Under the pieces are notes generated by a model. It did not search any database and was not told where the DNA came from. It saw nothing but the letters and a program-made list of their open reading frames with translations. A stretch of 64,000 nucleotides of DNA from a virus: the UHGV virus genome UHGV-0293664, one strand, 5' to 3'. A program made the translations under genes and the position numbers. Below are positions 43,183 to 52,372 of the stretch, one piece after another (positions within the stretch are counted from its first letter, which is position 1; every line of letters starts with the position of its first letter).

Positions 43183-43372
43183 CAGGTACTCGATCTGTTT
43201 TTCGTTTCAAAGATTGAATTTTCTGAAAATTTTTCTCGATAAATTTCTCAGTACTCGATCTGTTTTTCGTTTTCTGAATCGGATTTTCTGGAAATCGTTC
43301 CGGCTCTCGACCTGAAATTTTTGGGGACGAAATCGATTTTTCGTTTTCAGAAATGGATTTTTAAAATTTCTA
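43183..43372. repeat. degenerate tandem direct repeats (~65-bp unit, about 2.5 copies), iteron-like
   Basis: TACTCGATCTGTTTTTCGTTT at 43187 and 43252, partial third CGATTTTTCGTTTTC at 43333; GATTTTCTG/GAATTTTCTG sub-repeats. Confidence 0.6.
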
Positions 43373-43477
43373 TATGGGAATATTTTATGGGATACTGTTT
43401 TATAGGAAATTGTTACGGAGGGTAATTAGCGTGCTAATTAAATTTATGAAATGCGAGGAGTTCTCATTTAGAATTTT

Positions 43478-43700
43478 GAATGATAATCATTCTCGTTTGC
43501 AGAATAACGGGCACCCCCGGTGATTGTCTCCCGGCCCCTGTTGCCCCGGCTTGTTATTATAGTATCACACAGGACAAAGAAAGCAAGGACTTTTTGCATA
43601 AATTTTTAGACGATAATGATAATCGTTCTCATTTCATGCAGCGCCCATCCCCGGTGGTTGTCTCCCCCGTCACCGGTGCCTGCCGTCCTTTCGATATGTA
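43478..43700. repeat. tandem duplication (~120-bp unit) each carrying a GC-rich box ...CCGGTG(A/G)TTGTCTCCC...
   Basis: Both units start GATAATC.TTCTC.TTTC; boxes at 43510-43550 and 43641-43688. Confidence 0.6.
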
Positions 43701-43838
43701 TATTGTGCCACCTGGCGGGGCCGCTGTCAACACTTTTCAAAAAATTTTTCTAACCTGATGCGCTAACCGTTGCAACCTGGCGGGGCCAGCCTGGCAGGTC
43801 CGCGTTATAAAGTAAACAGCTACGGAAGAGGTACAAAA

Positions 43839-43988: not shown

Positions 43989-44088
43989 AAATAATTTAAA
44001 ATAATCGTTGACAGCTCGGACAGCTATTGTTATTCTTATCCTCGCAAGGTGAACAACACCACACCAATTAACAGAGAGGATAAAAATC

Positions 44089-44286
44089 ATGAACGCCTAC
44101 GGAATTAAAGTACGTCGCAACACCCGCCAGGTGGTCACCGATCAAATGGTTTGCCGGGTGGATGTAACCATCAACAACGGGCAAGGCCTTTATAAATTTC
44201 GTCGCGGTCATAGCTATACCCTGCAGCAGCTTAATCGTTGCGCCCTGACAAAAGGTCAGATCAACCACTGGTTTAATAAAAAATAA
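44089..44286 (+). CDS. early small protein
   Basis: 65 aa; SD GAGAGGA. Confidence 0.75.
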   Translation: MNAYGIKVRRNTRQVVTDQMVCRVDVTINNGQGLYKFRRGHSYTLQQLNRCALTKGQINHWFNKK

Positions 44287-44289
44287 ATA

Positions 44290-44318
44290 TTGACATGTAG
44301 TCTGAAACAAAATATACT
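44290..44318 (+). promoter_or_regulatory. sigma70-like promoter
   Basis: TTGACA-17 nt-TATACT. Confidence 0.65.
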
Positions 44319-44350
44319 GAAAGCACAAAAGACACTAAGAGGATAAAATC

Positions 44351-44749
44351 ATGAAAACCACAACCTTTAATTTTGACAATGCTAACTTCTCTTTTTCTGA
44401 TGTTAAAAGCTGCCGCCGTGATCGCGGATTCTACAAGGCCTATAATCTGGTTGTCTTGGACGATGATAATAATTTGCACGAAGTAGCGGAGATCCGGTAC
44501 TATGCCGCCGCCAGCGGTAACACTCACTACTGTGTATTTTGGATTCACGACAACAAGAACAATAAGTACGGTTATACTGGCGGCAAGGCGAGCGGTCACG
44601 GTTATGATAAAGCCAACGCTGCACTTGAAAGCGCATTAAGTGCCATGGGAATCACTGCCGACGGCTGGATCTATGAAGAAGAGTTTTTGGCGGCACTTGC
44701 TAACCGCTTGGGCTATAAAAAGCACATTGTAACGTGCGCCCACGAATAA
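44351..44749 (+). CDS. early protein
   Basis: 132 aa; SD AAGAGGA. Confidence 0.75.
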   Translation: MKTTTFNFDNANFSFSDVKSCRRDRGFYKAYNLVVLDDDNNLHEVAEIRYYAAASGNTHYCVFWIHDNKNNKYGYTGGKASGHGYDKANAALESALSAMGITADGWIYEEEFLAALANRLGYKKHIVTCAHE

Positions 44750-44838
44750 AAAAAAAAAATTATTGACACGCTGCAAAATTAAAGTAAACTAGACACAAAA
44801 GGCGGGAATATTTCCCGCCAACACAAAGGAAAAAGATC

Positions 44839-45243
44839 ATGAATAAGAACGTACGCCGCATCATGAACGAGTTGGCAAACGATGAAAAAATTATTGACAT
44901 GCATTTGATCAACATTTGCCGCCGTTGTGTAACATATAACAACCGCGCCGCAAAAGCGCGTGAGATGAACGCAAAAGGTACCTTAAAGCCATTCCAGGTG
45001 GTGGTAAAGGCCATTAAAGATGTAACTAATACGGCAAACCAGGTACAGGGGAACACCAACGAGAGTACCAATATTGATCCGTCTTACGTAATGAAACGGA
45101 TCCGGACTTGCAAGAATAAAGAGCAGGTGTATAACGTCATAGATTGGCTGGACTCCCTGGGTGATGTGGTTTACAATAGGTTTTCTGCAGCTATCGAGAT
45201 CCAGCTTGACAGATTAGACGGGAAAGTACTAAAAACTTATTGA
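44839..45243 (+). CDS. early protein
   Basis: 134 aa; SD AAAGGAAAAAGA; preceded by TTGACA box and GGCGGGAAnnTTCCCGCC leader hairpin. Confidence 0.75.
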   Translation: MNKNVRRIMNELANDEKIIDMHLINICRRCVTYNNRAAKAREMNAKGTLKPFQVVVKAIKDVTNTANQVQGNTNESTNIDPSYVMKRIRTCKNKEQVYNVIDWLDSLGDVVYNRFSAAIEIQLDRLDGKVLKTY

Positions 45244-45290
45244 GTTTATTTTTAGATGGCCTTGACTTCAGGGCCATCAATAAAGTAAAC
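45244..45290 (+). repeat. conserved post-stop hairpin element, copy 1
   Basis: TTTATTTTTAGATGGCCTTGACTTCAGGGCCATCAATAAAGTAAAC; 7-bp stem GATGGCC/GGCCATC. Confidence 0.6.
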
Positions 45291-45323
45291 TAACCACAAT
45301 TGAGCGGAAAAGGAGGCTTAAAG

Positions 45324-45443
45324 ATGAGCACTACACGCCAGCACACAAAGGTAACTATTATCGTTTGCATCATTGGTTACATCCTGGCGCAAATGTTGAT
45401 GAGTAGCGCCAACAGTTTTGCAAAATTTTTCTTAAATTTTTAA
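45324..45443 (+). CDS. possible small hydrophobic peptide (39 aa)
   Basis: ATG after AAGGAGG; MSTTRQHTKVTIIVCIIGYILAQ...; not in ORF track. Confidence 0.45.
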   Translation: MSTTRQHTKVTIIVCIIGYILAQMLMSSANSFAKFFLNF

Positions 45444-45471
45444 TTGACAAGCTAACCCAAATCGGTATACT
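45444..45471 (+). promoter_or_regulatory. sigma70-like promoter
   Basis: TTGACA-16 nt-TATACT. Confidence 0.65.
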
Positions 45472-45522
45472 TAAACACGTAAACGGGAAAACTTCCCAAA
45501 ACACACAAAAGGAGAAAACACC

Positions 45523-45864
45523 ATGACTACTATGACCGCCGAAGAAAAAGCCCTGCAGATCGCCGCTCTGAAAAAACAGATCGCAGACCTTGAGAATAAG
45601 ATCGATAACTTTGAAATCGACGAGGACAAGTACGACGAAAACTATGATGAATGGCTAGACGAGGTTTATGGCGAAATTATGATCGGAAACATTTCTTTTC
45701 TTCCGTCGCGTATCCTCAAGGAGTTAGATCCTATCGCTTACCGCTGCGGATTTAGCGACTACATCGACAGCCTGGATATTGAGGACGATGAAGAGTACCA
45801 AGAATTGCAGACAGAGATTGAAGAAGTGAAAGAAGAGCTTTCAAAGCTGGAAGAAAACGAGTAA
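45523..45864 (+). CDS. early acidic protein
   Basis: 113 aa; SD AAAGGAGAAAA. Confidence 0.75.
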   Translation: MTTMTAEEKALQIAALKKQIADLENKIDNFEIDEDKYDENYDEWLDEVYGEIMIGNISFLPSRILKELDPIAYRCGFSDYIDSLDIEDDEEYQELQTEIEEVKEELSKLEENE

Positions 45865-45912
45865 AATTTATTTTTAGATGGCCTTGACTCCAGGGCCATC
45901 AATAAAGTAAAC
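45865..45912 (+). repeat. conserved post-stop hairpin element, copy 2
   Basis: AAATTTATTTTTAGATGGCCTTGACTCCAGGGCCATCAATAAAGTAAAC. Confidence 0.6.
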
Positions 45913-45954
45913 TTTATACTGTTAACACTGAACTACTGCAAAGGAGTTAAAACC

Positions 45955-46200
45955 ATGGCAGCACTAATCACCAAGTATTATGCCCCTACTAACACCAAAA
46001 GCGCCCGTATCATGGTAAAAGGCTTCGGACGTAAAAAGGTTTACACCTGGGATTATGCCTTAGATACGGAAGACAACTACACCAACGCGATGACCGATTT
46101 TATTAATGAGCTGAACACGCGGATCTTGACAAATTATAAAATTACCGATATTGCCTATATAGGGGAAGGCGGGATCTGTTTTGTCGGTATCGTCAAATAA
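45955..46200 (+). CDS. early protein
   Basis: 81 aa; SD AAAGGAG. Confidence 0.75.
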   Translation: MAALITKYYAPTNTKSARIMVKGFGRKKVYTWDYALDTEDNYTNAMTDFINELNTRILTNYKITDIAYIGEGGICFVGIVK

Positions 46201-46275
46201 ACTATTTTTTCGGTGGTCCTGGCTGCAGGGCCATCTATAAAGATAATTTATTAACACCGTGAAAGGAGAAAGTAC

Positions 46276-46629
46276 ATGATCAGCGGGGCTAGTTTTATTA
46301 TTGGCGCTATTGCTACGGCTTTAATTGTAAACAAGATCCAATCTAAAAACGAAAAAGATAGCAACGCGCTCACAGAATACCCATTTTGGGTATTCAACGA
46401 CAACGAAGACTACATAATCAAGTACAAGAATGAGAAGGGCGACCAGGTAACACCGCGACCGATCCCGGCTTACAAAATGCAAGAAACACTATACCGCCTA
46501 AAGGCTGGAGGCGCAAAAATCGTAGACTTTTGGGGATATGATTGCAAGGATCAGGAGGTTATAAAACGGCGTATCCGGGCGATTCAGGCAAATATCGAGA
46601 TCAGTAAGGGGGGAAGTTATGAAAATTAA
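46276..46629 (+). CDS. early protein with N-terminal hydrophobic segment
   Basis: 117 aa; SD AAAGGAGAAAG. Confidence 0.75.
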   Translation: MISGASFIIGAIATALIVNKIQSKNEKDSNALTEYPFWVFNDNEDYIIKYKNEKGDQVTPRPIPAYKMQETLYRLKAGGAKIVDFWGYDCKDQEVIKRRIRAIQANIEISKGGSYEN

Positions 46630-46816
46630 TTTCGAAAAAATTGTAAAGCGCCCCCACGATTCCGAAGAGCTGCCGGAACGCCGCCAGCGCAACAATAAAC
46701 TGAATAAACCGAAAAGATTTGGGAAGATCTGGCGGAATCATTATGATCGTAAACTGCCTGGCCTACTCTTGGAACGTGAACGACAGGCGGAACGATACCG
46801 CCACAAAGGCAAATAA
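46619..46816 (+). CDS. small basic protein
   Basis: 65 aa; SD AAGGGGGGAAG; overlaps upstream stop. Confidence 0.6.
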   Translation: MKINFEKIVKRPHDSEELPERRQRNNKLNKPKRFGKIWRNHYDRKLPGLLLERERQAERYRHKGK

Positions 46817-46824
46817 CAACCAAC

Positions 46825-46853
46825 GCCCCGCCATTGTGCGGGGCTTTTTATTT
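46825..46853 (+). terminator. intrinsic terminator
   Basis: GCCCCGC-CATTGT-GCGGGGC then TTTTTATTT. Confidence 0.8.
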
Positions 46854-46997
46854 CTATCCTACGAATAGCGCCCCTGGTTGGTCCCACAAACGCCACAAAA
46901 GCCCCTACCTATGCAATCCCCTTTCTTAGTCTGAAAACATCGCCCAGGGCCGTTTTATGGTGTTAAAAATAGCATTGACAGTGATTTTATTTAAAGC

Positions 46998-47026
46998 TTG
47001 ACACCTTGGAATAGCCCAGATATACT
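46998..47026 (+). promoter_or_regulatory. sigma70-like promoter
   Basis: TTGACA-17 nt-TATACT. Confidence 0.65.
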
Positions 47027-47061
47027 AACCACATCAAAGCAAGAAGGAAGGAGTAAACGCC

Positions 47062-47322
47062 ATGCGTAAATTAAAAAATTTTGATAAAGTCGATATTGTC
47101 CTGAATAATTTTTACTACTGCAATAATAAAGCCGTTTGGTGGCGTGATAGTTCCACCGATAAAGTTAAAGCGCGCTTTCTCCAGGGGCACTGGCAAGGCC
47201 GCCCAGTGATTAAGATCCTGGGGCAATCGGTAGCGTTTAAAAATTGCCGCCGTGTTGATGACGTTGAAGAGATTCTAAACATTTTACGCCACAATAATTT
47301 AAAAAATAGTGTTGACAAGTAA
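47062..47322 (+). CDS. early protein
   Basis: 86 aa; SD GAAGGAAGGAG. Confidence 0.75.
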   Translation: MRKLKNFDKVDIVLNNFYYCNNKAVWWRDSSTDKVKARFLQGHWQGRPVIKILGQSVAFKNCRRVDDVEEILNILRHNNLKNSVDK

Positions 47323-47339
47323 ATCTTGATAAGTATACT
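47312..47339 (+). promoter_or_regulatory. sigma70-like promoter
   Basis: TTGACA-16 nt-TATACT; followed by GGCGGGAAAACTTCCCGCC leader hairpin. Confidence 0.65.
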
Positions 47340-47396
47340 TAAACACACAGGCGGGAAAACTTCCCGCCACTAACAAAGAAAATAGGAGAAAATATC

Positions 47397-48020
47397 ATGA
47401 CCACCGTTAACATTACCGCAGGTTACAATTTATCTTTCGACGTGCTGACCGACGAACAAAAAGAAAAAGCTATTGAAATGGTCCGCGAAAGAGAAGAACA
47501 CAGCGGAGAGGATTTTTTCGCAGAAAGTGTAATTGAATATTATAAAGAACAAGTTTTTCCAGAGTACGGCCTTGAAGATACCGAAGTACATTGGTCCGGA
47601 TTTTGGTGTCAAGGCGATGGCGCGTCAATTAGTGCTGAAAATGTAGACTTAGAAAAATTCTTGCGTAAAGTAAAGGCCCTGACCAAGTTCCGATCAATTC
47701 GTCACTTGTTCGGCACAATGCACGATGGCGAGTTATCAGCCAGTATTGAACGCGACAAGTACAGCCATTACAGCCATGAAAACACTGTAAACGGATACAT
47801 TGATACCACCTGGATAAATCTGACCGCCAAACAAGAAAACAAAGTGGAAGACCTGGAAGAGCTGATCACCGAGACGGCACGGGAGCTATCCCGTAAGGTT
47901 TACGTAGACCTGGAGGAGGCCTATCTAGAACAGTTCACTACCGAAAACCTGATCGATCTTATTAAGGCTAATGATTGGCGGTTTGATGTAGATGAACATG
48001 GCGAGATGACTTTTTCATAA
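47397..48020 (+). CDS. early acidic protein
   Basis: 207 aa; SD AAATAGGAGAAAA. Confidence 0.8.
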   Translation: MTTVNITAGYNLSFDVLTDEQKEKAIEMVREREEHSGEDFFAESVIEYYKEQVFPEYGLEDTEVHWSGFWCQGDGASISAENVDLEKFLRKVKALTKFRSIRHLFGTMHDGELSASIERDKYSHYSHENTVNGYIDTTWINLTAKQENKVEDLEELITETARELSRKVYVDLEEAYLEQFTTENLIDLIKANDWRFDVDEHGEMTFS

Positions 48021-48109
48021 ATAAAGTGTTGCAATAACCTAAAAACCTGCTATATTAAAACTCAAGGGGCAAGACGTTTGCCCCCACACAAAACAAAGAG
48101 GAAAACATC

Positions 48110-48490
48110 ATGAAAAACACTACTAAAGCTATTGACACCGTTATGTTTAACCTGGTTACCTTTCGCGAGGATATGAAAGATCTTCCGCGTGAAACAGTGT
48201 GCGACCATATCGAAAACTATCGCAAACTAATCAAAAAGTTGCCTTTAAAACGTGATCAGTATGCGGCTAACGCCATGCTTAATGCCATGATCAAAAAGAT
48301 GATCCAGTGTGATTTAACTCTGGCCTATGATTATGCAGGTGGTCGTTTTGCAGTATACAATCAGCCCGTGCCTGGTATGAGCACCACAGAAGAATTGCAC
48401 GCGTTAAATCTAAAACAAGACGTGTGGGATAGCATGCCTCGCGTGGTGGTATGGGTAGAAAGCGGGAAGATTTACGGCGATAATTTTTAA
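48110..48490 (+). CDS. early protein
   Basis: 126 aa; SD AAAGAGGAAAA. Confidence 0.8.
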   Translation: MKNTTKAIDTVMFNLVTFREDMKDLPRETVCDHIENYRKLIKKLPLKRDQYAANAMLNAMIKKMIQCDLTLAYDYAGGRFAVYNQPVPGMSTTEELHALNLKQDVWDSMPRVVVWVESGKIYGDNF

Positions 48491-48500
48491 TCAGATAACA

Positions 48501-48532
48501 GGCGGCGGCATATTTGCCGCCGCCTTATTGTT
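48501..48532 (+). terminator. intrinsic terminator
   Basis: GGCGGCGGC-ATATTT-GCCGCCGCC then TTATTGTT. Confidence 0.75.
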
Positions 48533-48560
48533 AAACAGAACTGCAAAAGAGGTACATAGA

Positions 48561-48932
48561 ATGGAATTTATTATTTTGGCTGTATTGGTTGCCTTGTTTA
48601 ACGCCTGGATTGCTGGCAAGATGGGCAGATCCGCCTTTTTATGGTTTATTATATCTATTTTCCTGGGGGTGGTTGCAACTATTGTATTGGTTATCCTTGC
48701 AATTGTTGACAAGGGGAATAATAGAAAGGGTAAAGTATTTTCAGACCTGTACGACGCTCAAACGTTTGTCAACGCATATTATAGTGATCTTCCAGTCTCC
48801 CTACGCTGCAGCCTGGCACAACAAGTTTTCGATGAGGCTAAAACCAGAGATCAAGCCCATGAGATATGTTTAACTGAGGCGGATCGCCTATTTGAGAGGA
48901 ATAGAAAATATGTGGGCCAACCGTTTAAATAA
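48561..48932 (+). CDS. membrane protein
   Basis: ATG 48561 after AAAGAGG; two hydrophobic helices. Confidence 0.7.
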   Translation: MEFIILAVLVALFNAWIAGKMGRSAFLWFIISIFLGVVATIVLVILAIVDKGNNRKGKVFSDLYDAQTFVNAYYSDLPVSLRCSLAQQVFDEAKTRDQAHEICLTEADRLFERNRKYVGQPFK

Positions 48933-49155
48933 TGCCACGTTAATTAATCCCTTTAGTGAAGATTTGAAGCCAGCCGCCTGGCGTGATGGATTCAATACCG
49001 AACGCTTTATTTTCAGGCCTGATCTTGAGGAATTTTATAACAATGGATCGAACAACGACAGAGATAATTTTTCTTGTGATGTGCGTGGTGATGGTACTCC
49101 TGGGGGCCATTGTAAACCACGTCACTACTACCAGGGGGAAAGGGGGAGACGATGA
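48910..49155 (+). CDS. hypothetical protein
   Basis: ATG 48910 after GAGAGG; overlaps upstream gene end. Confidence 0.5.
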   Translation: MWANRLNNATLINPFSEDLKPAAWRDGFNTERFIFRPDLEEFYNNGSNNDRDNFSCDVRGDGTPGGHCKPRHYYQGERGRR

Positions 49156-49271
49156 CACCCAAGGATAAGCCACGCACCAATAAGGCGCGCCGTGTTATGG
49201 TGTGGCTGGAGATCATCGCCCTTGAAATATTGCTAGGCGTAGGGATGTACTTTATCGCTGTAAGTAACTAA
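49152..49271 (+). CDS. possible small membrane peptide (39 aa)
   Basis: ATG after GGGGGAGA; MTPKDKPRTNKARRVMVWLEIIALEILLGVGMYFIAV; terminator follows. Confidence 0.45.
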   Translation: MTPKDKPRTNKARRVMVWLEIIALEILLGVGMYFIAVSN

Positions 49272-49275
49272 GAAC

Positions 49276-49303
49276 GGCCCCCCGATCATGGGGGCCTATC
49301 TTT
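49276..49303 (+). terminator. intrinsic terminator-like hairpin
   Basis: GGCCCCC-GATCAT-GGGGGCC then TATCTTT. Confidence 0.55.
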
Positions 49304-49326
49304 AAAAAAATTTTTCTTCCGGGGTG

Positions 49327-49354
49327 TTGCAATCCGGTCCGGAATGTGGATAAT
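49327..49354 (+). promoter_or_regulatory. sigma70-like promoter
   Basis: TTGCAA-16 nt-GATAAT. Confidence 0.55.
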
Positions 49355-49409
49355 AACAATCAACGGGGAGCTAATCCCACCACCACAAAAACCAGAAAGG
49401 AGAAACAAA

Positions 49410-49610
49410 ATGAGCAACAATATCCGCGTTATTAACTTCAAAAAAGAAGAAAAAATTGCCGTGCTGATTGACGGTCAAGAAATCTTCAAGGGCGACTATG
49501 AAGATCATCAAACGGCGATTAGTATCACCCGCGTGATTGGTTACCATAATTTCTACCCCCAAGGTGCTGAGGCAGCAGTTAAACGAATCAAAGAGATTGT
49601 AGGCCTGTAA
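49410..49610 (+). CDS. early small protein
   Basis: ATG 49410 after AAAGGAGAAAC; 66 aa. Confidence 0.7.
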   Translation: MSNNIRVINFKKEEKIAVLIDGQEIFKGDYEDHQTAISITRVIGYHNFYPQGAEAAVKRIKEIVGL

Positions 49611-49658
49611 AATTTATTTTTAGATGGCCTTGACTCCGGGGGCCATCAATAAAGTAAA
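49611..49658 (+). repeat. conserved post-stop hairpin element, copy 3
   Basis: AAATTTATTTTTAGATGGCCTTGACTCCGGGGGCCATCAATAAAGTAAAT. Confidence 0.6.
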
Positions 49659-49702
49659 TTTAAACCCTGTTAAAATAATCAGTGCAAAAAGGAGTAATGA
49701 TC

Positions 49703-50002
49703 ATGTTTATACCCGCCAATAATCTTTATTTCTTTGATGGTCAAATCGTAGACGGCGTGGAAGTTGAGATCACCGGGTGCCCTGGTGGTCAGGCTATGAC
49801 TTTTCGGAATAATGCTTTTGATGATTCTCATATCGTTATGAGAATGGAAGTTACGAAGCTGGACGACAAGAAAACACTTATTGACTATTCTGTGAAAGAT
49901 CATCCAGACTACCGCATGATCCATGGCGATTTGTGCAGTGTTGACCGTGACAAGGTGGGCGGCATTGTGATCGCTATTGTGAACGATGTTTTCTCAAACT
50001 AA
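49703..50002 (+). CDS. early protein
   Basis: ATG 49703 after AAAGGAG; 99 aa. Confidence 0.7.
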   Translation: MFIPANNLYFFDGQIVDGVEVEITGCPGGQAMTFRNNAFDDSHIVMRMEVTKLDDKKTLIDYSVKDHPDYRMIHGDLCSVDRDKVGGIVIAIVNDVFSN

Positions 50003-50019
50003 TTTCAGCAGGTGATTTT

Positions 50020-50370
50020 ATGAAAGTCAAACTATATTACCTTAATGAGCTTAACCCCCTTGCCCAGGTCCGCGCCCTGGCTAATACCTTGATTTGTGAG
50101 AAATCTGCATATTGTGTTGAGCTTAACGCCATGCGTGAACGTCTCAAAGGGGGTTACTTCGACATCCATGCTGCAATCAACGGCCTGAATATGGAATTTA
50201 TACGCTTACGTAACAGCCGCCGGAATCTGGCAAGAATGGAACAAGATCCGGCCCACCTTCGTAAGCTGGTTATTGAAAATCATCTGATGTTTAATGCCGA
50301 GGGTGATTATTACCATTTTCACCGCAAACGCTGGTACCGTGGCGGCAATACAGGCAAGAATGCAAAATAA
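50020..50370 (+). CDS. early protein
   Basis: 116-aa ORF; weak SD. Confidence 0.65.
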   Translation: MKVKLYYLNELNPLAQVRALANTLICEKSAYCVELNAMRERLKGGYFDIHAAINGLNMEFIRLRNSRRNLARMEQDPAHLRKLVIENHLMFNAEGDYYHFHRKRWYRGGNTGKNAK

Positions 50371-50571
50371 GGCCCCAGGCAGGGCCTGCAGCGATATAAT
50401 CACATAAAGGCTATGCGGTTGCATGGCCTTTATTATTTTAGCGTTACAGCGACCCCCAAGGCGCTTAAAAAAATTTTAAAGAAGTACTTGCATCAAGCCC
50501 TACAATATGGATAATAGGACGTGTCGGGGGGCGGCCCCCAATCATTAACCGGATAGATAGGAGTTAAAACC

Positions 50572-50856
50572 ATGGCTATTGTTACCGCTGGCGATGTAGT
50601 AGAAATGGAAGCAAAATACTTAAAAGCGGGTATGCATATCCTACGCAACGATCTTGAACTGGTCCTGACAATGGTTGACTATAACCCAGGGCAAGATTAT
50701 CCAAGTGTTGACTACTTTTTTAGGTATGTTGATGAAGAATTAAAAGAGGATGAGGCTTATCAGGGCGAATTCTGTAATTTCTTTTGCTCTGATGAGGTTG
50801 TAAAAGTTATCTATCAACCTGGCGTACCTTTCCCGTTGCACGCTATCAATAAATAA
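50572..50856 (+). CDS. early protein
   Basis: 94 aa; SD ATAGGAG; TTGCAT-17 nt-ATAATA box upstream. Confidence 0.75.
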   Translation: MAIVTAGDVVEMEAKYLKAGMHILRNDLELVLTMVDYNPGQDYPSVDYFFRYVDEELKEDEAYQGEFCNFFCSDEVVKVIYQPGVPFPLHAINK

Positions 50857-50911
50857 ACCTGGCGGGGCCGAAAAGGCCCCCAATTATGAAAATAAAGAGA
50901 GGTAAATCATC

Positions 50912-51145
50912 ATGATGGAACAAATTAAACGCGCTGAGGCTATTAATGGCAATGTGATCTACTTTGTCAGCAAAAACGAAAAAGGCGTACCATATGCGGC
51001 GGTAATAGTACAGCCTGACGGTGATTATTGGTTTACTGTGTACGGCGCTTATTCTTTCGGGCGTCCGGTGCATGATAGAATTTTGAAAGTAGCGAACCCC
51101 ACCGGGAAGAATATCACGGCAGAAAAATTTTTTGAAAATAATTGA
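50912..51145 (+). CDS. early protein
   Basis: 77 aa; SD AGAGAGG. Confidence 0.75.
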   Translation: MMEQIKRAEAINGNVIYFVSKNEKGVPYAAVIVQPDGDYWFTVYGAYSFGRPVHDRILKVANPTGKNITAEKFFENN

Positions 51146-51169
51146 CAACGTTTTAAATTAGTTTAAGAT
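51142..51169 (+). promoter_or_regulatory. sigma70-like promoter
   Basis: TTGACA-16 nt-TAAGAT then conserved GTATCACGTAGGG start region. Confidence 0.6.
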
Positions 51170-51226
51170 GTATCACGTAGGGGAGACAAGCGCCCTATTA
51201 AACGCAACAGGAAGAGGATAAACACC

Positions 51227-51466
51227 ATGAAAAGCAATAAAGGTTATAACGGTTACAAAAACAAAACTCATTGGAATGTAAGCCTTTGGATTAATAACGA
51301 TGAGTCATTGTACCGGTTGGCCCAAGGCTTTATCAACGCTAATGCTAATCGTAATGATGCGGCGCGGGATATGATGCTTTTTCTGGAGCTAACCGGACAA
51401 GATAAGACCCCGGACGGCTTCAAGTACAGCACTACGGCGATCCGTGCCGCGATGGTTGGAATGTGA
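51227..51466 (+). CDS. early protein
   Basis: 79 aa; SD GAAGAGGA. Confidence 0.75.
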   Translation: MKSNKGYNGYKNKTHWNVSLWINNDESLYRLAQGFINANANRNDAARDMMLFLELTGQDKTPDGFKYSTTAIRAAMVGM

Positions 51467-51475
51467 TAAAATAGC

Positions 51476-51503
51476 TTGACACTGTTTTTTATTCTGGTAT
51501 AGT
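51476..51503 (+). promoter_or_regulatory. sigma70-like promoter
   Basis: TTGACA-16 nt-TATAGT. Confidence 0.6.
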
Positions 51504-51645
51504 TTATCACATAGGACGGCACGACAGAGTACTACGGATTCGAGGGTGTCCGGTGCGGTGAACTTGCTCGCGACCTTAAGGAAGATCCAGACCTGGAAGA
51601 TCTGCCCATCACCGTAAACGGGAAAACTTACGTAAACCGTTAACC

Positions 51646-51780
51646 ATGAGAAAGATAATCATCACCTTGGGGATTGTGGCGGGATCGCTGGCGCTCTTTC
51701 CCCTTATGGTTAGATATGTGCTGATCAGTATTGTCCTGATAGTTAGTGATTTATTGGAAACGGTTGGCACCTTGTTTTAA
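51646..51780 (+). CDS. possible small membrane peptide (44 aa)
   Basis: MRKIIITLGIVAGSLALFPLMVRYVLISIVLIV...; no clear SD; not in ORF track. Confidence 0.3.
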   Translation: MRKIIITLGIVAGSLALFPLMVRYVLISIVLIVSDLLETVGTLF

Positions 51781-51792
51781 AGAGCGGTAAAA

Positions 51793-51984
51793 ATGAATAT
51801 CGAACAAGTTAGAAAGGTATTGGCGGTACTGCGTTATCATAATCATAGAAAGGTCATAGACGATCCTGATTATGTCGATTCAAGCCTGGAAGGGGATACA
51901 CTACAAGCCATAAGCAACATGCAAGAATTGCTAAAGCGCATGACAGAGAAAAACAGATCTGATTATATAGGTGACGAGATCTAA
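51793..51984 (+). CDS. early small protein
   Basis: 63-aa ORF; weak SD. Confidence 0.6.
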   Translation: MNIEQVRKVLAVLRYHNHRKVIDDPDYVDSSLEGDTLQAISNMQELLKRMTEKNRSDYIGDEI

Positions 51985-51990
51985 AATAGC

Positions 51991-52018
51991 TTGCACAATG
52001 TATCTGATAGTGTAAGAT
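51991..52018 (+). promoter_or_regulatory. sigma70-like promoter
   Basis: TTGCAC-16 nt-TAAGAT then GTATCACGTAGGG as at 51170. Confidence 0.6.
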
Positions 52019-52068
52019 GTATCACGTAGGGCGGCAATAGTGCCGCTCACAACTGGAAGGAAAACACC

Positions 52069-52272
52069 ATGACTACAGCTAACCGCCTGATCGCCGTCCT
52101 GAACAAAGCAAAGGCTAACCGCCTGGATGTTCAAATCAAAGAGCAAGCAAATGGCGAGATCCTTGCTACGGTGTCCGATGGCGGTTATGTATCGGAATCA
52201 TTTTTATCAGGGAGCTTAGATCATCTTGTTTGGAAATTAGAAATTATCGTGGAGGATATGCAGATCATCTAA
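52069..52272 (+). CDS. early small protein
   Basis: 67 aa; SD GGAAGGAAAA; terminator-like hairpin follows. Confidence 0.75.
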   Translation: MTTANRLIAVLNKAKANRLDVQIKEQANGEILATVSDGGYVSESFLSGSLDHLVWKLEIIVEDMQII

Positions 52273-52326
52273 TCTTTACAAAACAGGGCTTGTTTTTATC
52301 CTGTTTTTTGTTATACTTGTTTCACG

Positions 52327-52372
52327 GCAGGCACCTGGCGACGGGGGGAGACAATCACCGTGGGTGCCTGTC
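52327..52372 (-). repeat. inverted copy of the GC-rich box found at 43510 and 43641
   Basis: GGGGGGAGACAATCACCGTGGG is the reverse complement of CCACGGTGATTGTCTCCCC-type box; flanked by CAGGCACC/GGTGCCTG. Confidence 0.6.

Follow-up and report, generated by a model that had tools for sequence, protein, structure and literature searches.

A repeated intercistronic hairpin in the early region of an rV5-like phage resembles the RNase III signals of T7 and may contain a promoter

Introduction

The early polycistronic RNA of phage T7 carries five signals of a type that ribonuclease III (RNase III) cuts in one strand, within an internal loop, leaving a 3' hairpin that serves as a determinant of stability (PMC3867540). 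Another kind of intercistronic element is the promoter-early stem-loop (PeSL) cassette of the T4-like phages RB49/phi1, PST and nt-1 (PMC2839356, PMC4122927), in which a stop codon in an A+T-rich stretch is followed by -35 and -10 hexamers, a G-T-paired stem-loop that possibly overlaps the -35, a Shine-Dalgarno (SD) sequence and ATG; the PeSL stem-loop cut the expression of a downstream lacZ as much as rrnB T1 did (PMC2839356). Here we describe an element of about 50 nt that is present in four copies, all on the + strand, in a stretch of 64,000 nucleotides (64 kb; hereafter the window) of the virus genome UHGV-0293664. Three near-identical copies lie at 45244-45290 (copy 1), 45865-45912 (copy 2) and 49611-49658 (copy 3), and a diverged fourth at 46197-46251 (copy 4); the repeat had been noted in an original prediction made from the letters of the window, and its three near-identical copies and degenerate relative are borne out. 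We favour, at even chances for the reading as a whole, an intercistronic hairpin of the RNase III type that serves processing and 3' stabilisation, has a sigma70 promoter nested in most of its copies, and provides sites for recombination.

Typing of E. coli O157, biocontrol and therapy collections all make wide use of phages of the rV5-like group, whose early transcription is known from hexamer searches only. The genome paper on rV5 lists 33 promoters and 20 terminators, this element not among them, and our literature searches found neither transcript mapping for Vequintavirus nor a link to RNase III.

Results

A conserved repeat at stop codons

Over positions 44000-50500 the window shares 93-95% identity with over 100 genomes of E. 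coli Vequintavirus (rV5-like), and by this measure its phage is an rV5-like Vequintavirus, a coliphage that is not T4-like. The element recurs here in a fixed setting: every copy starts at or inside the stop codon of the upstream open reading frame (ORF) and leaves 24-38 nt between its end and the start codon that follows. A covariance model built from the copies (model R1) finds exactly four sites in the window, with E-values of 1e-14 to 1e-16; it also scores the reverse complements of these sites, at about half the score, and otherwise nothing below E = 4. A 32-nt core pattern had no match in 100 shuffles of the window. In 121 phage records BLAST detected three sites of the element per genome, copy 4 being too diverged for the sensitivity of this search, and in every relative fetched all four copies stand at the same positions, which is the outcome of the alignment to related phages that had been proposed as a check.

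No copy is present in 5,426 E. coli genomes; thus it does not belong to the repeats of the host. When 44000-51000 was scanned against Rfam at E <= 5, no family fell on the element. The public annotation of the orthologous site reads 'promoter' (PhagePromoter) in phage Gotham and terminator in phage Murica. A scan of bacterial genome contigs returned 42 matches, all of them in G+C-rich bacteria that are unrelated and outside the enterobacterial host group, and we judged them to be chance. A 15-mer scan of IMG/VR gave almost only chance matches, those in L313, L314 and L061 are likewise attributed to chance, and a protein-anchored search of IMG/VR yielded one useful locus. Seventeen records (MG0656xx) that bear the name 'Campylobacter phage' share 93% identity with rV5-like phages of E. 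coli in this region, and their host label seems doubtful.

A two-helix hairpin on the coding strand

When the RNA is folded, the whole of the ~50 nt forms a single hairpin in each of the four copies, composed of an upper stem, an internal loop and a lower stem. The upper stem of 10 bp (GAUGGCCUUG/CAGGGCCAUC) includes one U.G pair as well as U-A and G-C pairs and is capped by a tetraloop. The internal loop is asymmetric, with 2/3 nt (UA/AAU in copies 1-3, UC/UAU in copy 4). The lower stem of 8-11 bp (UUUAUUUU/AAAGUAAA) is A-U-rich, has a conserved U.G and reaches into the stop codon. A stem of 7 bp with an 11-nt loop, as originally described, is therefore too small an object: the upper stem is longer by three pairs, closes a loop of 4 nt and is stacked on the lower one. 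The folding that had been suggested as a check gives a stable + strand hairpin, with free energies of -20.6 to -25.1 kcal/mol and z-scores of -4.2 to -6.6, whereas the - strand reaches only -12.4 to -17.4 kcal/mol.

The hairpin of copy 1 (45243..45291, + strand as throughout; -25.1 kcal/mol, z -6.6; 83.9 bits and E 1.4e-16 under model R1) begins at the last base of TGA. Its lower stem pairs 45243-45252 with 45282-45291 and its upper stem 45255-45264 with 45269-45278, separated by the internal loop UA 45253-45254/AAU 45279-45281 and closed by ACUU at 45265-45268. In copy 2 (45862..45916; -21.5 kcal/mol, z -6.3; 84 bits) the core of the lower stem is 45867-45874/45904-45911, its outer part includes the TAA at 45862-45864, the upper stem is 45877-45886/45891-45900, and the loops are UA 45875-45876/AAU 45901-45903 and, at the apex, ACUC 45887-45890. 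Copy 3 (49610..49661; -20.6 kcal/mol, z -4.2; 78.9 bits) follows the TAA at 49608-49610, with a lower stem at 49610-49620/49651-49661, an upper stem at 49623-49631/49639-49647 and UA 49621-49622/AAU 49648-49650 between them; it has one extra apical G that is private to this window and missing from the orthologues. Copy 4, the former 'degenerate relative' (46197..46251; -21.4 kcal/mol, z -5.1, against -12.4 on the - strand; 73.4 bits), has a lower stem at 46203-46209/46239-46245 with an outer part at 46197-46201/46247-46251 that includes the TAA at 46198-46200, the internal loop UC 46210-46211/UAU 46236-46238, and an upper stem at 46212-46221/46226-46235 with G.U and U.G pairs and the loop GCUG.

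Like an intrinsic terminator, the element places a G+C-rich stem-loop right after a stop codon. Unlike a terminator, it has no 3' U-tract, being followed by AAUAAAGUAAA without a U-run, and its flanks are reversed, U-rich on the 5' side and A-rich on the 3' side, and pair with one another. We rejected an intrinsic terminator on the grounds that the U-tract is missing, that none of the 29 terminator-like sites of our scan is the element, and that ordinary terminators close the same operons. The scan is silent at the element and calls true U-tract terminators nearby (46825, 48500, 49276 and 50404), so that the earlier view of the element as something other than a classical intrinsic terminator is upheld.

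Selection on RNA structure

We aligned 33 distinct copies (alignment A5) from the window, seven Vequintavirus relatives, the Justusliebigvirus KKE7M, and two divergent metagenomic relatives, L069 and L139, the latter a 139-kb sequence with five copies of which about 10% aligns to known Vequintavirus at 76-83%. Standard pairs are formed by 97.6% of pair cells, compared with 91.1% for shuffled partners and 33-58% when the partners are slid by 1-3 columns. Seven of the 20 pairs have changed on both sides (39 cells), and the covariation score of 0.257, versus 0.139, was reached by none of 500 shuffles. Compensatory changes are found in the lower stem (A-U/U-A/C-G at columns 10:61, U-A/A-U/G.U/G-C at 9:62, G-C/A-U at 6:65) as well as in the upper one (C-G to U-A at 22:48, U-A to G-C at 25:45). 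The alignment contains 81 G.U cells and 10 A.C cells, and the opposite strand would pair in only 86.8%. Because of this asymmetry, the pairing appears to belong to the gene-sense RNA (or to a single-stranded structure of the + strand) and not to a duplex-DNA operator. Judging from these substitutions, the RNA structure is very probably under selection.

The portion best conserved across all copies is UUUU..(U[A/C])/(NAU)AAAG. Three A+T-rich phage contigs, all unrelated, came out of scans with the flank pattern: L200, L260 (part of a contig of 190 kb) and L267 (part of one of 134 kb). They have the same lower stem and 2/3-nt internal loop around different upper stems of 10-13 bp, and no TTGAC; in L200 the element again follows a stop codon. 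The flanks of these three were imposed by the search pattern and are suggestive only. Among the matches listed, a flank-only scan of metagenomes gave mostly A+T-rich noise, from which we kept L200 and the rV5-like L173 (= L124), L195 and L236.

The L260 site (901-946), with the same flanks and another upper stem, of 11 bp, lies directly upstream of an apparent HNH/NUMOD-type homing endonuclease gene, as judged from the sequence of the ORF. It is situated in an apparent tail-fibre region and may link such hairpins to mobile genes.

A partial likeness is found within the window at 43759-43818, where, after the stop codon of the ORF at 43480-43758, the G+C hairpin ACCUGGCGGGGCCAGCCUGGCAGGU is followed by TATAAAGTAAAC, which equals the 3' half of the element. 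The U-rich 5' strand is missing, so that no lower stem is possible; ATAAAGTAAACAGC at this site is common to the metagenomic element in L200. The site may have arisen by decay of a copy, or the 3' half of the element may be in independent use here.

Likeness to the RNase III signals of T7

The RNase III signals of T7 (R0.3, R0.5, R1, R1.1, R1.3, R4.7 and R18.5) are, like the element, repeated intercistronic hairpins of ~50 nt near the upstream stop codon, and R0.5, R1, R4.7 and R18.5 lie in or adjoin that codon as the copies in the window do. Six of these sites, R0.3, R0.5, R1, R1.1, R4.7 and R18.5, when folded, consist of an upper stem of 9-10 bp with G.U pairs, a loop of 3-5 nt, an asymmetric internal loop and a lower stem of 5-10 bp. 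Correspondingly, in all four copies of the element the two helical parts together span about two turns of RNA helix, and the asymmetric internal loop lies about 10-11 bp below the apical loop. The centroid structure of T7 R1 has the internal loop UA/AAU, identical to that of copies 1-3; on the 3' side of this loop the other T7 sites have UAU or CAU, and the element family AAU, UAU, GAU or CAU. The two groups differ as well. Sequence homology is absent, the internal loop is 2/3 nt here and 4/5 nt in most T7 sites, the lower stem of the element is almost purely A-U, and it belongs to an unrelated myovirus, which relies on the host's RNA polymerase throughout. T7 promoters stand beside RNase III sites, and a promoter inside the hairpin, as proposed for the element, was not seen there.

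Model R1, when run on the T7 early region, gave two matches only, to R0.3 and to R1, both in register and with marginal E-values (0.4 and 0.52). A second model, built from the six T7 sites (model R2) and run on both strands of the window, ranked copy 2 first (E 0.021), and its top six matches, at E 0.021-0.79, are all four copies and both strands of the terminator at 50404. By these models, the reciprocal matches amount to a shared shape and not to demonstrable homology. T7 R3.8, R6.5 and R13 were omitted from model R2, as no two-helix fold was obtained at the coordinates used for them. The terminator in question (50391-50444), a hairpin AAAGGCUAUGC-GGUU-GCAUGGCCUUUAUUAUUUU that equals t177 of the rV5 paper, was the second-best match of model R2 (E 0.06 on the - strand and 0.76 on the + strand), owing to GGCCUUUAU; it has a proper U-tract and we read it as an ordinary terminator.

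Where would the element be cut? The six T7 cut positions attributed to Dunn and Studier (1983), 890, 1468, 3138, 5887, 13892 and 36856, fall without exception on the U of NAU, in one and the same place of the structure, and this agreement both lends credence to the coordinates and fixes the geometry of the cut. By analogy, the predicted scissile bonds of the element lie after the U of NAU at 45281/45282, 45903/45904, 46238/46239 and 49650/49651 on the + strand. The pair rules and cut geometry of RNase III established in vitro (Pertzev and Nicholson, PMC1540722) allow a further comparison. In copies 1 and 2 the pairs beside the loop-closing pair are U-A and U-G, as in T7 R1.1, which corresponds to the canonical distal box; in the proximal box position 2 is A-U and position 4 an A.A mismatch, and no strong antideterminant is present (PMC1540722). 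Taken together, the analogy with T7 makes RNase III the somewhat favoured candidate for the effector.

A putative promoter nested in most copies

Most copies contain the hexamers TTGAC(T/A/G)-18-TAAA(C/T)T, a spacing that is permissible for sigma70. In copy 1 (45262..45291) TTGACT at 45262-45267 is followed after 18 nt by TAAACT at 45286-45291, with a predicted start at ~45298; in copy 2 (45884..45913) TTGACT at 45884-45889 precedes TAAACT at 45908-45913 by the same distance; and in copy 3 (49630..49660) TTGACT at 49630-49635 and TAAATT at 49655-49660 are 19 nt apart (18 in all relatives). A standard sigma70 promoter had been dismissed earlier on the basis of a distance of ~13 nt, which was measured to TAAAGT; the TAAACT or TAAATT hexamer lies 18 nt away (19 in the copy at 49611), and recourse to a non-canonical promoter, another of the earlier candidates, is not needed. 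Upstream of the copy 2 promoter, AAAATTTATTTTT resembles the published consensus of the UP element.

Several features favour a promoter. TTGAC is invariant in the genus, and variation falls on the sixth -35 base (TTGACT/A/G), the least constrained position, and on the first base of the spacer. The canonical promoter at 44763 has TAAACT as its -10, too. In two of the L139 copies (b and c) the loops are enlarged to 9 and 16 nt and contain a perfect TTGACA exactly 17 nt before TAACCT/TAAACT, an arrangement that would be difficult to account for without selection on the -35 in these copies. In KKE7M, a G+C leader hairpin begins 11 nt after TAAATT, and in the canonical promoters of these phages such hairpins begin 9-13 nt after the -10. 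On this sequence evidence we think it rather probable that the TTGAC-bearing copies are active promoters. The -35 is missing from copy 4 and its orthologues (CTGGCT/CTGGTA), from three L139 copies and from L069, all of which keep both helices; by their sequences, the hairpin appears to be the constant and the promoter an optional passenger. A sigma54 reading of CTGGC was dropped for its unsuitable spacing, as was a reading of TATAAAG as a T4 late promoter; the published rV5 'late' motif TGGTAAAATA is of a different, extended -10 type.

A second repeated module, at 44763-44819, 45444-45509, 47312-47377 and 51613-51637, consists of a consensus promoter (TTGACA-16/17-TATACT or TAAACT), a gap of 10-13 nt, a conserved G+C hairpin and then an SD sequence. 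The hairpin reads GGCGGGAA(A/T)A(C/T)TTCCCGCC, reduced at 45484 to the core GGGAAAACTTCCC, and probably stabilises primary transcripts as a stem-loop at their 5' end. KKE7M has the same design (L132, 5265-5330 and 6284-6345).

Recombination between copies

The segment 45292..45863, between copies 1 and 2, is an expendable cassette of 572 bp on the + strand that holds a 39-aa (amino acid) ORF, the promoter at 45444-45471 with its leader hairpin, and a 113-aa ORF. BLAST junctions show this segment to be missing from phage ECP32 and from the IMG/VR contig L096, and at the junction stands a single hybrid element in which the 5' flank of copy 1 is joined to the 3' flank of copy 2. A module of promoter, 113-aa gene and element is present in KKE7M, which belongs to a different subfamily, and its similarity stops at the 3' edge of the element. 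Since the copies are near-identical, they may well serve as sites of homologous recombination.

Gene content varies elsewhere in the region as well. Phage rV5_ev146 (L269), a derivative of rV5, lacks window positions 44829-45336 (the 134-aa gene and copy 1) and 46753-52353 (5.6 kb including copy 3), so several early genes and element copies would be dispensable for growth; its deletions do not end at elements, and we discarded the idea that they were element-mediated. Positions 50082-50373, most of the 116-aa ORF at 50020-50370, are absent from L096 and L236 with a short junction unconnected to the element, which constitutes another presence/absence polymorphism of the early region.

Discussion

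Given these likenesses, we propose that the element works much as the T7 signals do. We envision that, in early mRNA produced by read-through, the ~50 nt fold into the two-helix hairpin from within the upstream stop codon, that host RNase III cuts once, after the AU of the 3' internal loop, and that this cut separates the cistrons and leaves the upstream mRNA with the stable upper hairpin as a block to 3' exonucleases. At the level of DNA, most copies would present a -35, TTGAC(N), at the apex of the hairpin and a -10, TAAA(C/T)T, on the 3' side of the lower stem, and the downstream gene could also be transcribed separately from this nested promoter. Near-identical copies would, in addition, engage in homologous recombination and thereby remove the intervening genes or carry them elsewhere. 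'RNA processing or stability element' had been one of the candidate functions in the original prediction and is the one best supported, by the covariation, by the + strand G.U pairs and by the T7-like architecture, position and model matches. The REP (repetitive extragenic palindromic) sequences in malEFG are a precedent in the host for intercistronic 3'-stabilising hairpins of polycistronic mRNAs; like them, the element is a stable hairpin after a cistron that is expected to protect the upstream RNA from 3' exonucleases, and it differs from them in that they are host chromosomal repeats with another consensus and that E. coli genomes hold no copy of the element.

Several observations weigh against this scheme. 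The cross-model E-values are marginal (0.02-0.8) and reflect mostly shared shape, and the four copies are paralogues and not independent. Positions 1 (U-A) and 3 (G-C) of the proximal box differ from the in-vitro optimum (G-C and A-U); T7 R1 is likewise non-optimal at position 3, with C-G. The promoter matches the consensus at only 9/12 positions with a G+C-rich spacer of 18-19 nt, and matches of such quality are common in the region (81 found, 42 expected). Because several copies are devoid of a -35, the promoter is not a function common to the family. Finally, variation within the genus cannot separate a structural from a promoter reading, because the positions of the stems and of the hexamers coincide.

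Could the element be a promoter and nothing else? It would then be an early sigma70 promoter with a UP-like A+T-rich upstream part, and its inverted repeats would be incidental or would act in the DNA, as a cruciform or as an operator around the -35. Hexamers and spacing are in agreement with this idea, as are the label at the orthologous site of phage Gotham, the perfect TTGACA at 17 nt in L139 and the canonical distance of the leader hairpin in KKE7M. Yet both helices are kept where no -35 exists (copy 4 and orthologues, three of the five L139 copies, L069), both have undergone compensatory changes, and the excess of G.U over A.C cells (81 vs 10) on one strand would be meaningless for duplex DNA or for a symmetric operator. 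Moreover, loop lengths of 3-16 nt alter the spacing of half-sites, and a UP element and a -10 have no cause to be complementary to each other. We thus consider a pure promoter unlikely.

Alternatively, the element may be an attenuator or terminator of the PeSL type, whose hairpin halts read-through without RNase III and whose nested promoter restarts transcription, so that the genes are insulated from one another. Copies 1-3 have the PeSL layout, which copy 4 lacks for want of a -35; the surroundings are small ORFans (ORFs without known relatives) with insertions and deletions between relatives via the copies; and, as in PeSLs, copies recombine and thereby delete or move the genes that they flank (here in ECP32, L096 and KKE7M). 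The reduction of lacZ expression by a PeSL stem-loop to the same extent as by rrnB T1 (PMC2839356) and the label 'terminator' in the Murica record would fit such a role. The comparison has its limits, however: PeSLs belong to another phage family and have no sequence similarity to the element; their promoters are near-consensus with 17-nt spacers, versus 9/12 and 18-19 nt here; their stem-loops are simple polyG/polyC hairpins interpreted as terminators, versus two helices of the RNase III-site type; and some copies of the element have no promoter at all. By this analogy, we regard the element as an analogue of PeSLs and not as a member by descent. A terminating role in particular is improbable in our view, as AAUAAAG and not a U-tract follows the upper stem, an A-U-rich lower stem disfavours intrinsic termination, the element goes uncalled in the terminator scan, and the same operons end in textbook terminators. 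Promoterless copies, furthermore, would block the downstream genes at 46276-46816, which themselves have no promoter.

A third scenario is a binding site for a phage or host RNA-binding protein, a regulator of translation or stability that recognises the lower stem, the internal loop and AAAG without any involvement of RNase III. A binding site had been among the original candidates and is possible, yet on its own it leaves the G.U asymmetry unexplained. The conservation of UUUU..(U[A/C])/(NAU)AAAG and the recurrence of the same flanks around unrelated upper stems in L200, L260 and L267 would suit a protein of this kind; the latter was imposed by the search pattern, however, and no candidate emerged among the neighbouring ORFs, all of them in PHROGs of unknown function and without a Pfam match that exceeds the curated cut-off. 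As any RNA helix of 20 bp in E. coli is exposed to RNase III anyway, we find this scenario distinctly unlikely. A selfish or neutral small palindromic repeat that is spread by recombination and has no regulatory role, as near-identical copies that mediate the deletion or transfer of cassettes might suggest, is very improbable for an element that always lies on the coding strand at a stop codon, 24-38 nt before the next start, is kept at all four positions in the relatives examined, shows compensatory evolution even in the divergent relative, and has no copies in E. coli genomes.

The preferred reading, an RNase III-type hairpin with a nested promoter, would imply that the early mRNAs of the rV5-like group are cut by host RNase III into monocistronic, 3'-protected units, as in T7, and it yields four exact predicted cleavage positions. 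The repeats would also account for some of the differences in gene content among relatives and for the passage of a gene into another subfamily, and phage engineering would gain a small natural part that unites insulator and promoter. It is a new example of known phage regulatory cassettes, T7-like processing signals and PeSL-like cassettes, and not a new mechanism; neither kind has been described before in this phage family. More speculatively, and we put this forward with considerable reserve, one sequence of 50 nt might be truly bifunctional, a sigma70 promoter as DNA and an RNase III site as RNA, and its lower stem and internal loop (UUUAUUUUUA...AAUAAAGUAAA) might be a portable module. 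Each downstream early gene would then obtain its own mRNA by initiation or by processing and each upstream mRNA a protective 3' hairpin, and small early genes would be autonomous cassettes exchanged between phage families, as between Vequintavirus and Justusliebigvirus.

Genes and signals around the element

Small ORFs on the + strand fill 44000-50500, and each of them was assigned to PHROGs of unknown function; a Pfam scan of those neighbouring the element gave none above the curated cut-off. A signal scan found that the ORFs alternate with consensus sigma70 promoters and U-tract terminators, and the region is a typical host-polymerase 'early' region of ORFans. Copy 1 follows a 134-aa ORF (44839-45243, TGA at 45241-45243), which is preceded by the canonical promoter at 44763-44790 (-10 TAAACT; P194 of the rV5 genome paper). 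Between copies 1 and 2 lie the 39-aa ORF (45324-45443), the canonical promoter with leader hairpin (45444-45471) and the 113-aa ORF that it precedes (45523-45864, TAA at 45862-45864). An 81-aa ORF (45955-46200, TAA at 46198-46200) is located between copies 2 and 4, and a 66/88-aa ORF (TAA at 49608-49610) upstream of copy 3; all of these features are on the + strand. The operon that begins at the promoter at 45444 is closed by an intrinsic terminator at 46825-46853 (+), GCCCCGC...GCGGGGC followed by TTTTTATTT. With copies 2 and 4 inside these consensus boundaries, a transcript that spans both would, from the flanking signals, be polycistronic.

A tblastn search with the 81-aa protein retrieved a widely scattered small protein and no further elements. 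Its relatives, at 31-47% identity, occur in phages that are unrelated, namely Seuratvirus-like siphoviruses, Pseudomonas myoviruses and Klebsiella podoviruses, and this small gene seems to move horizontally. The stretch 43186-43374, which immediately precedes the early region, holds three direct repeats of ~50 nt (GTACTCGATCTGTTTTTCGTTT...) at a spacing of 65-74 nt, and an A+T-rich hairpin of 16 pairs lies at 43317-43354.

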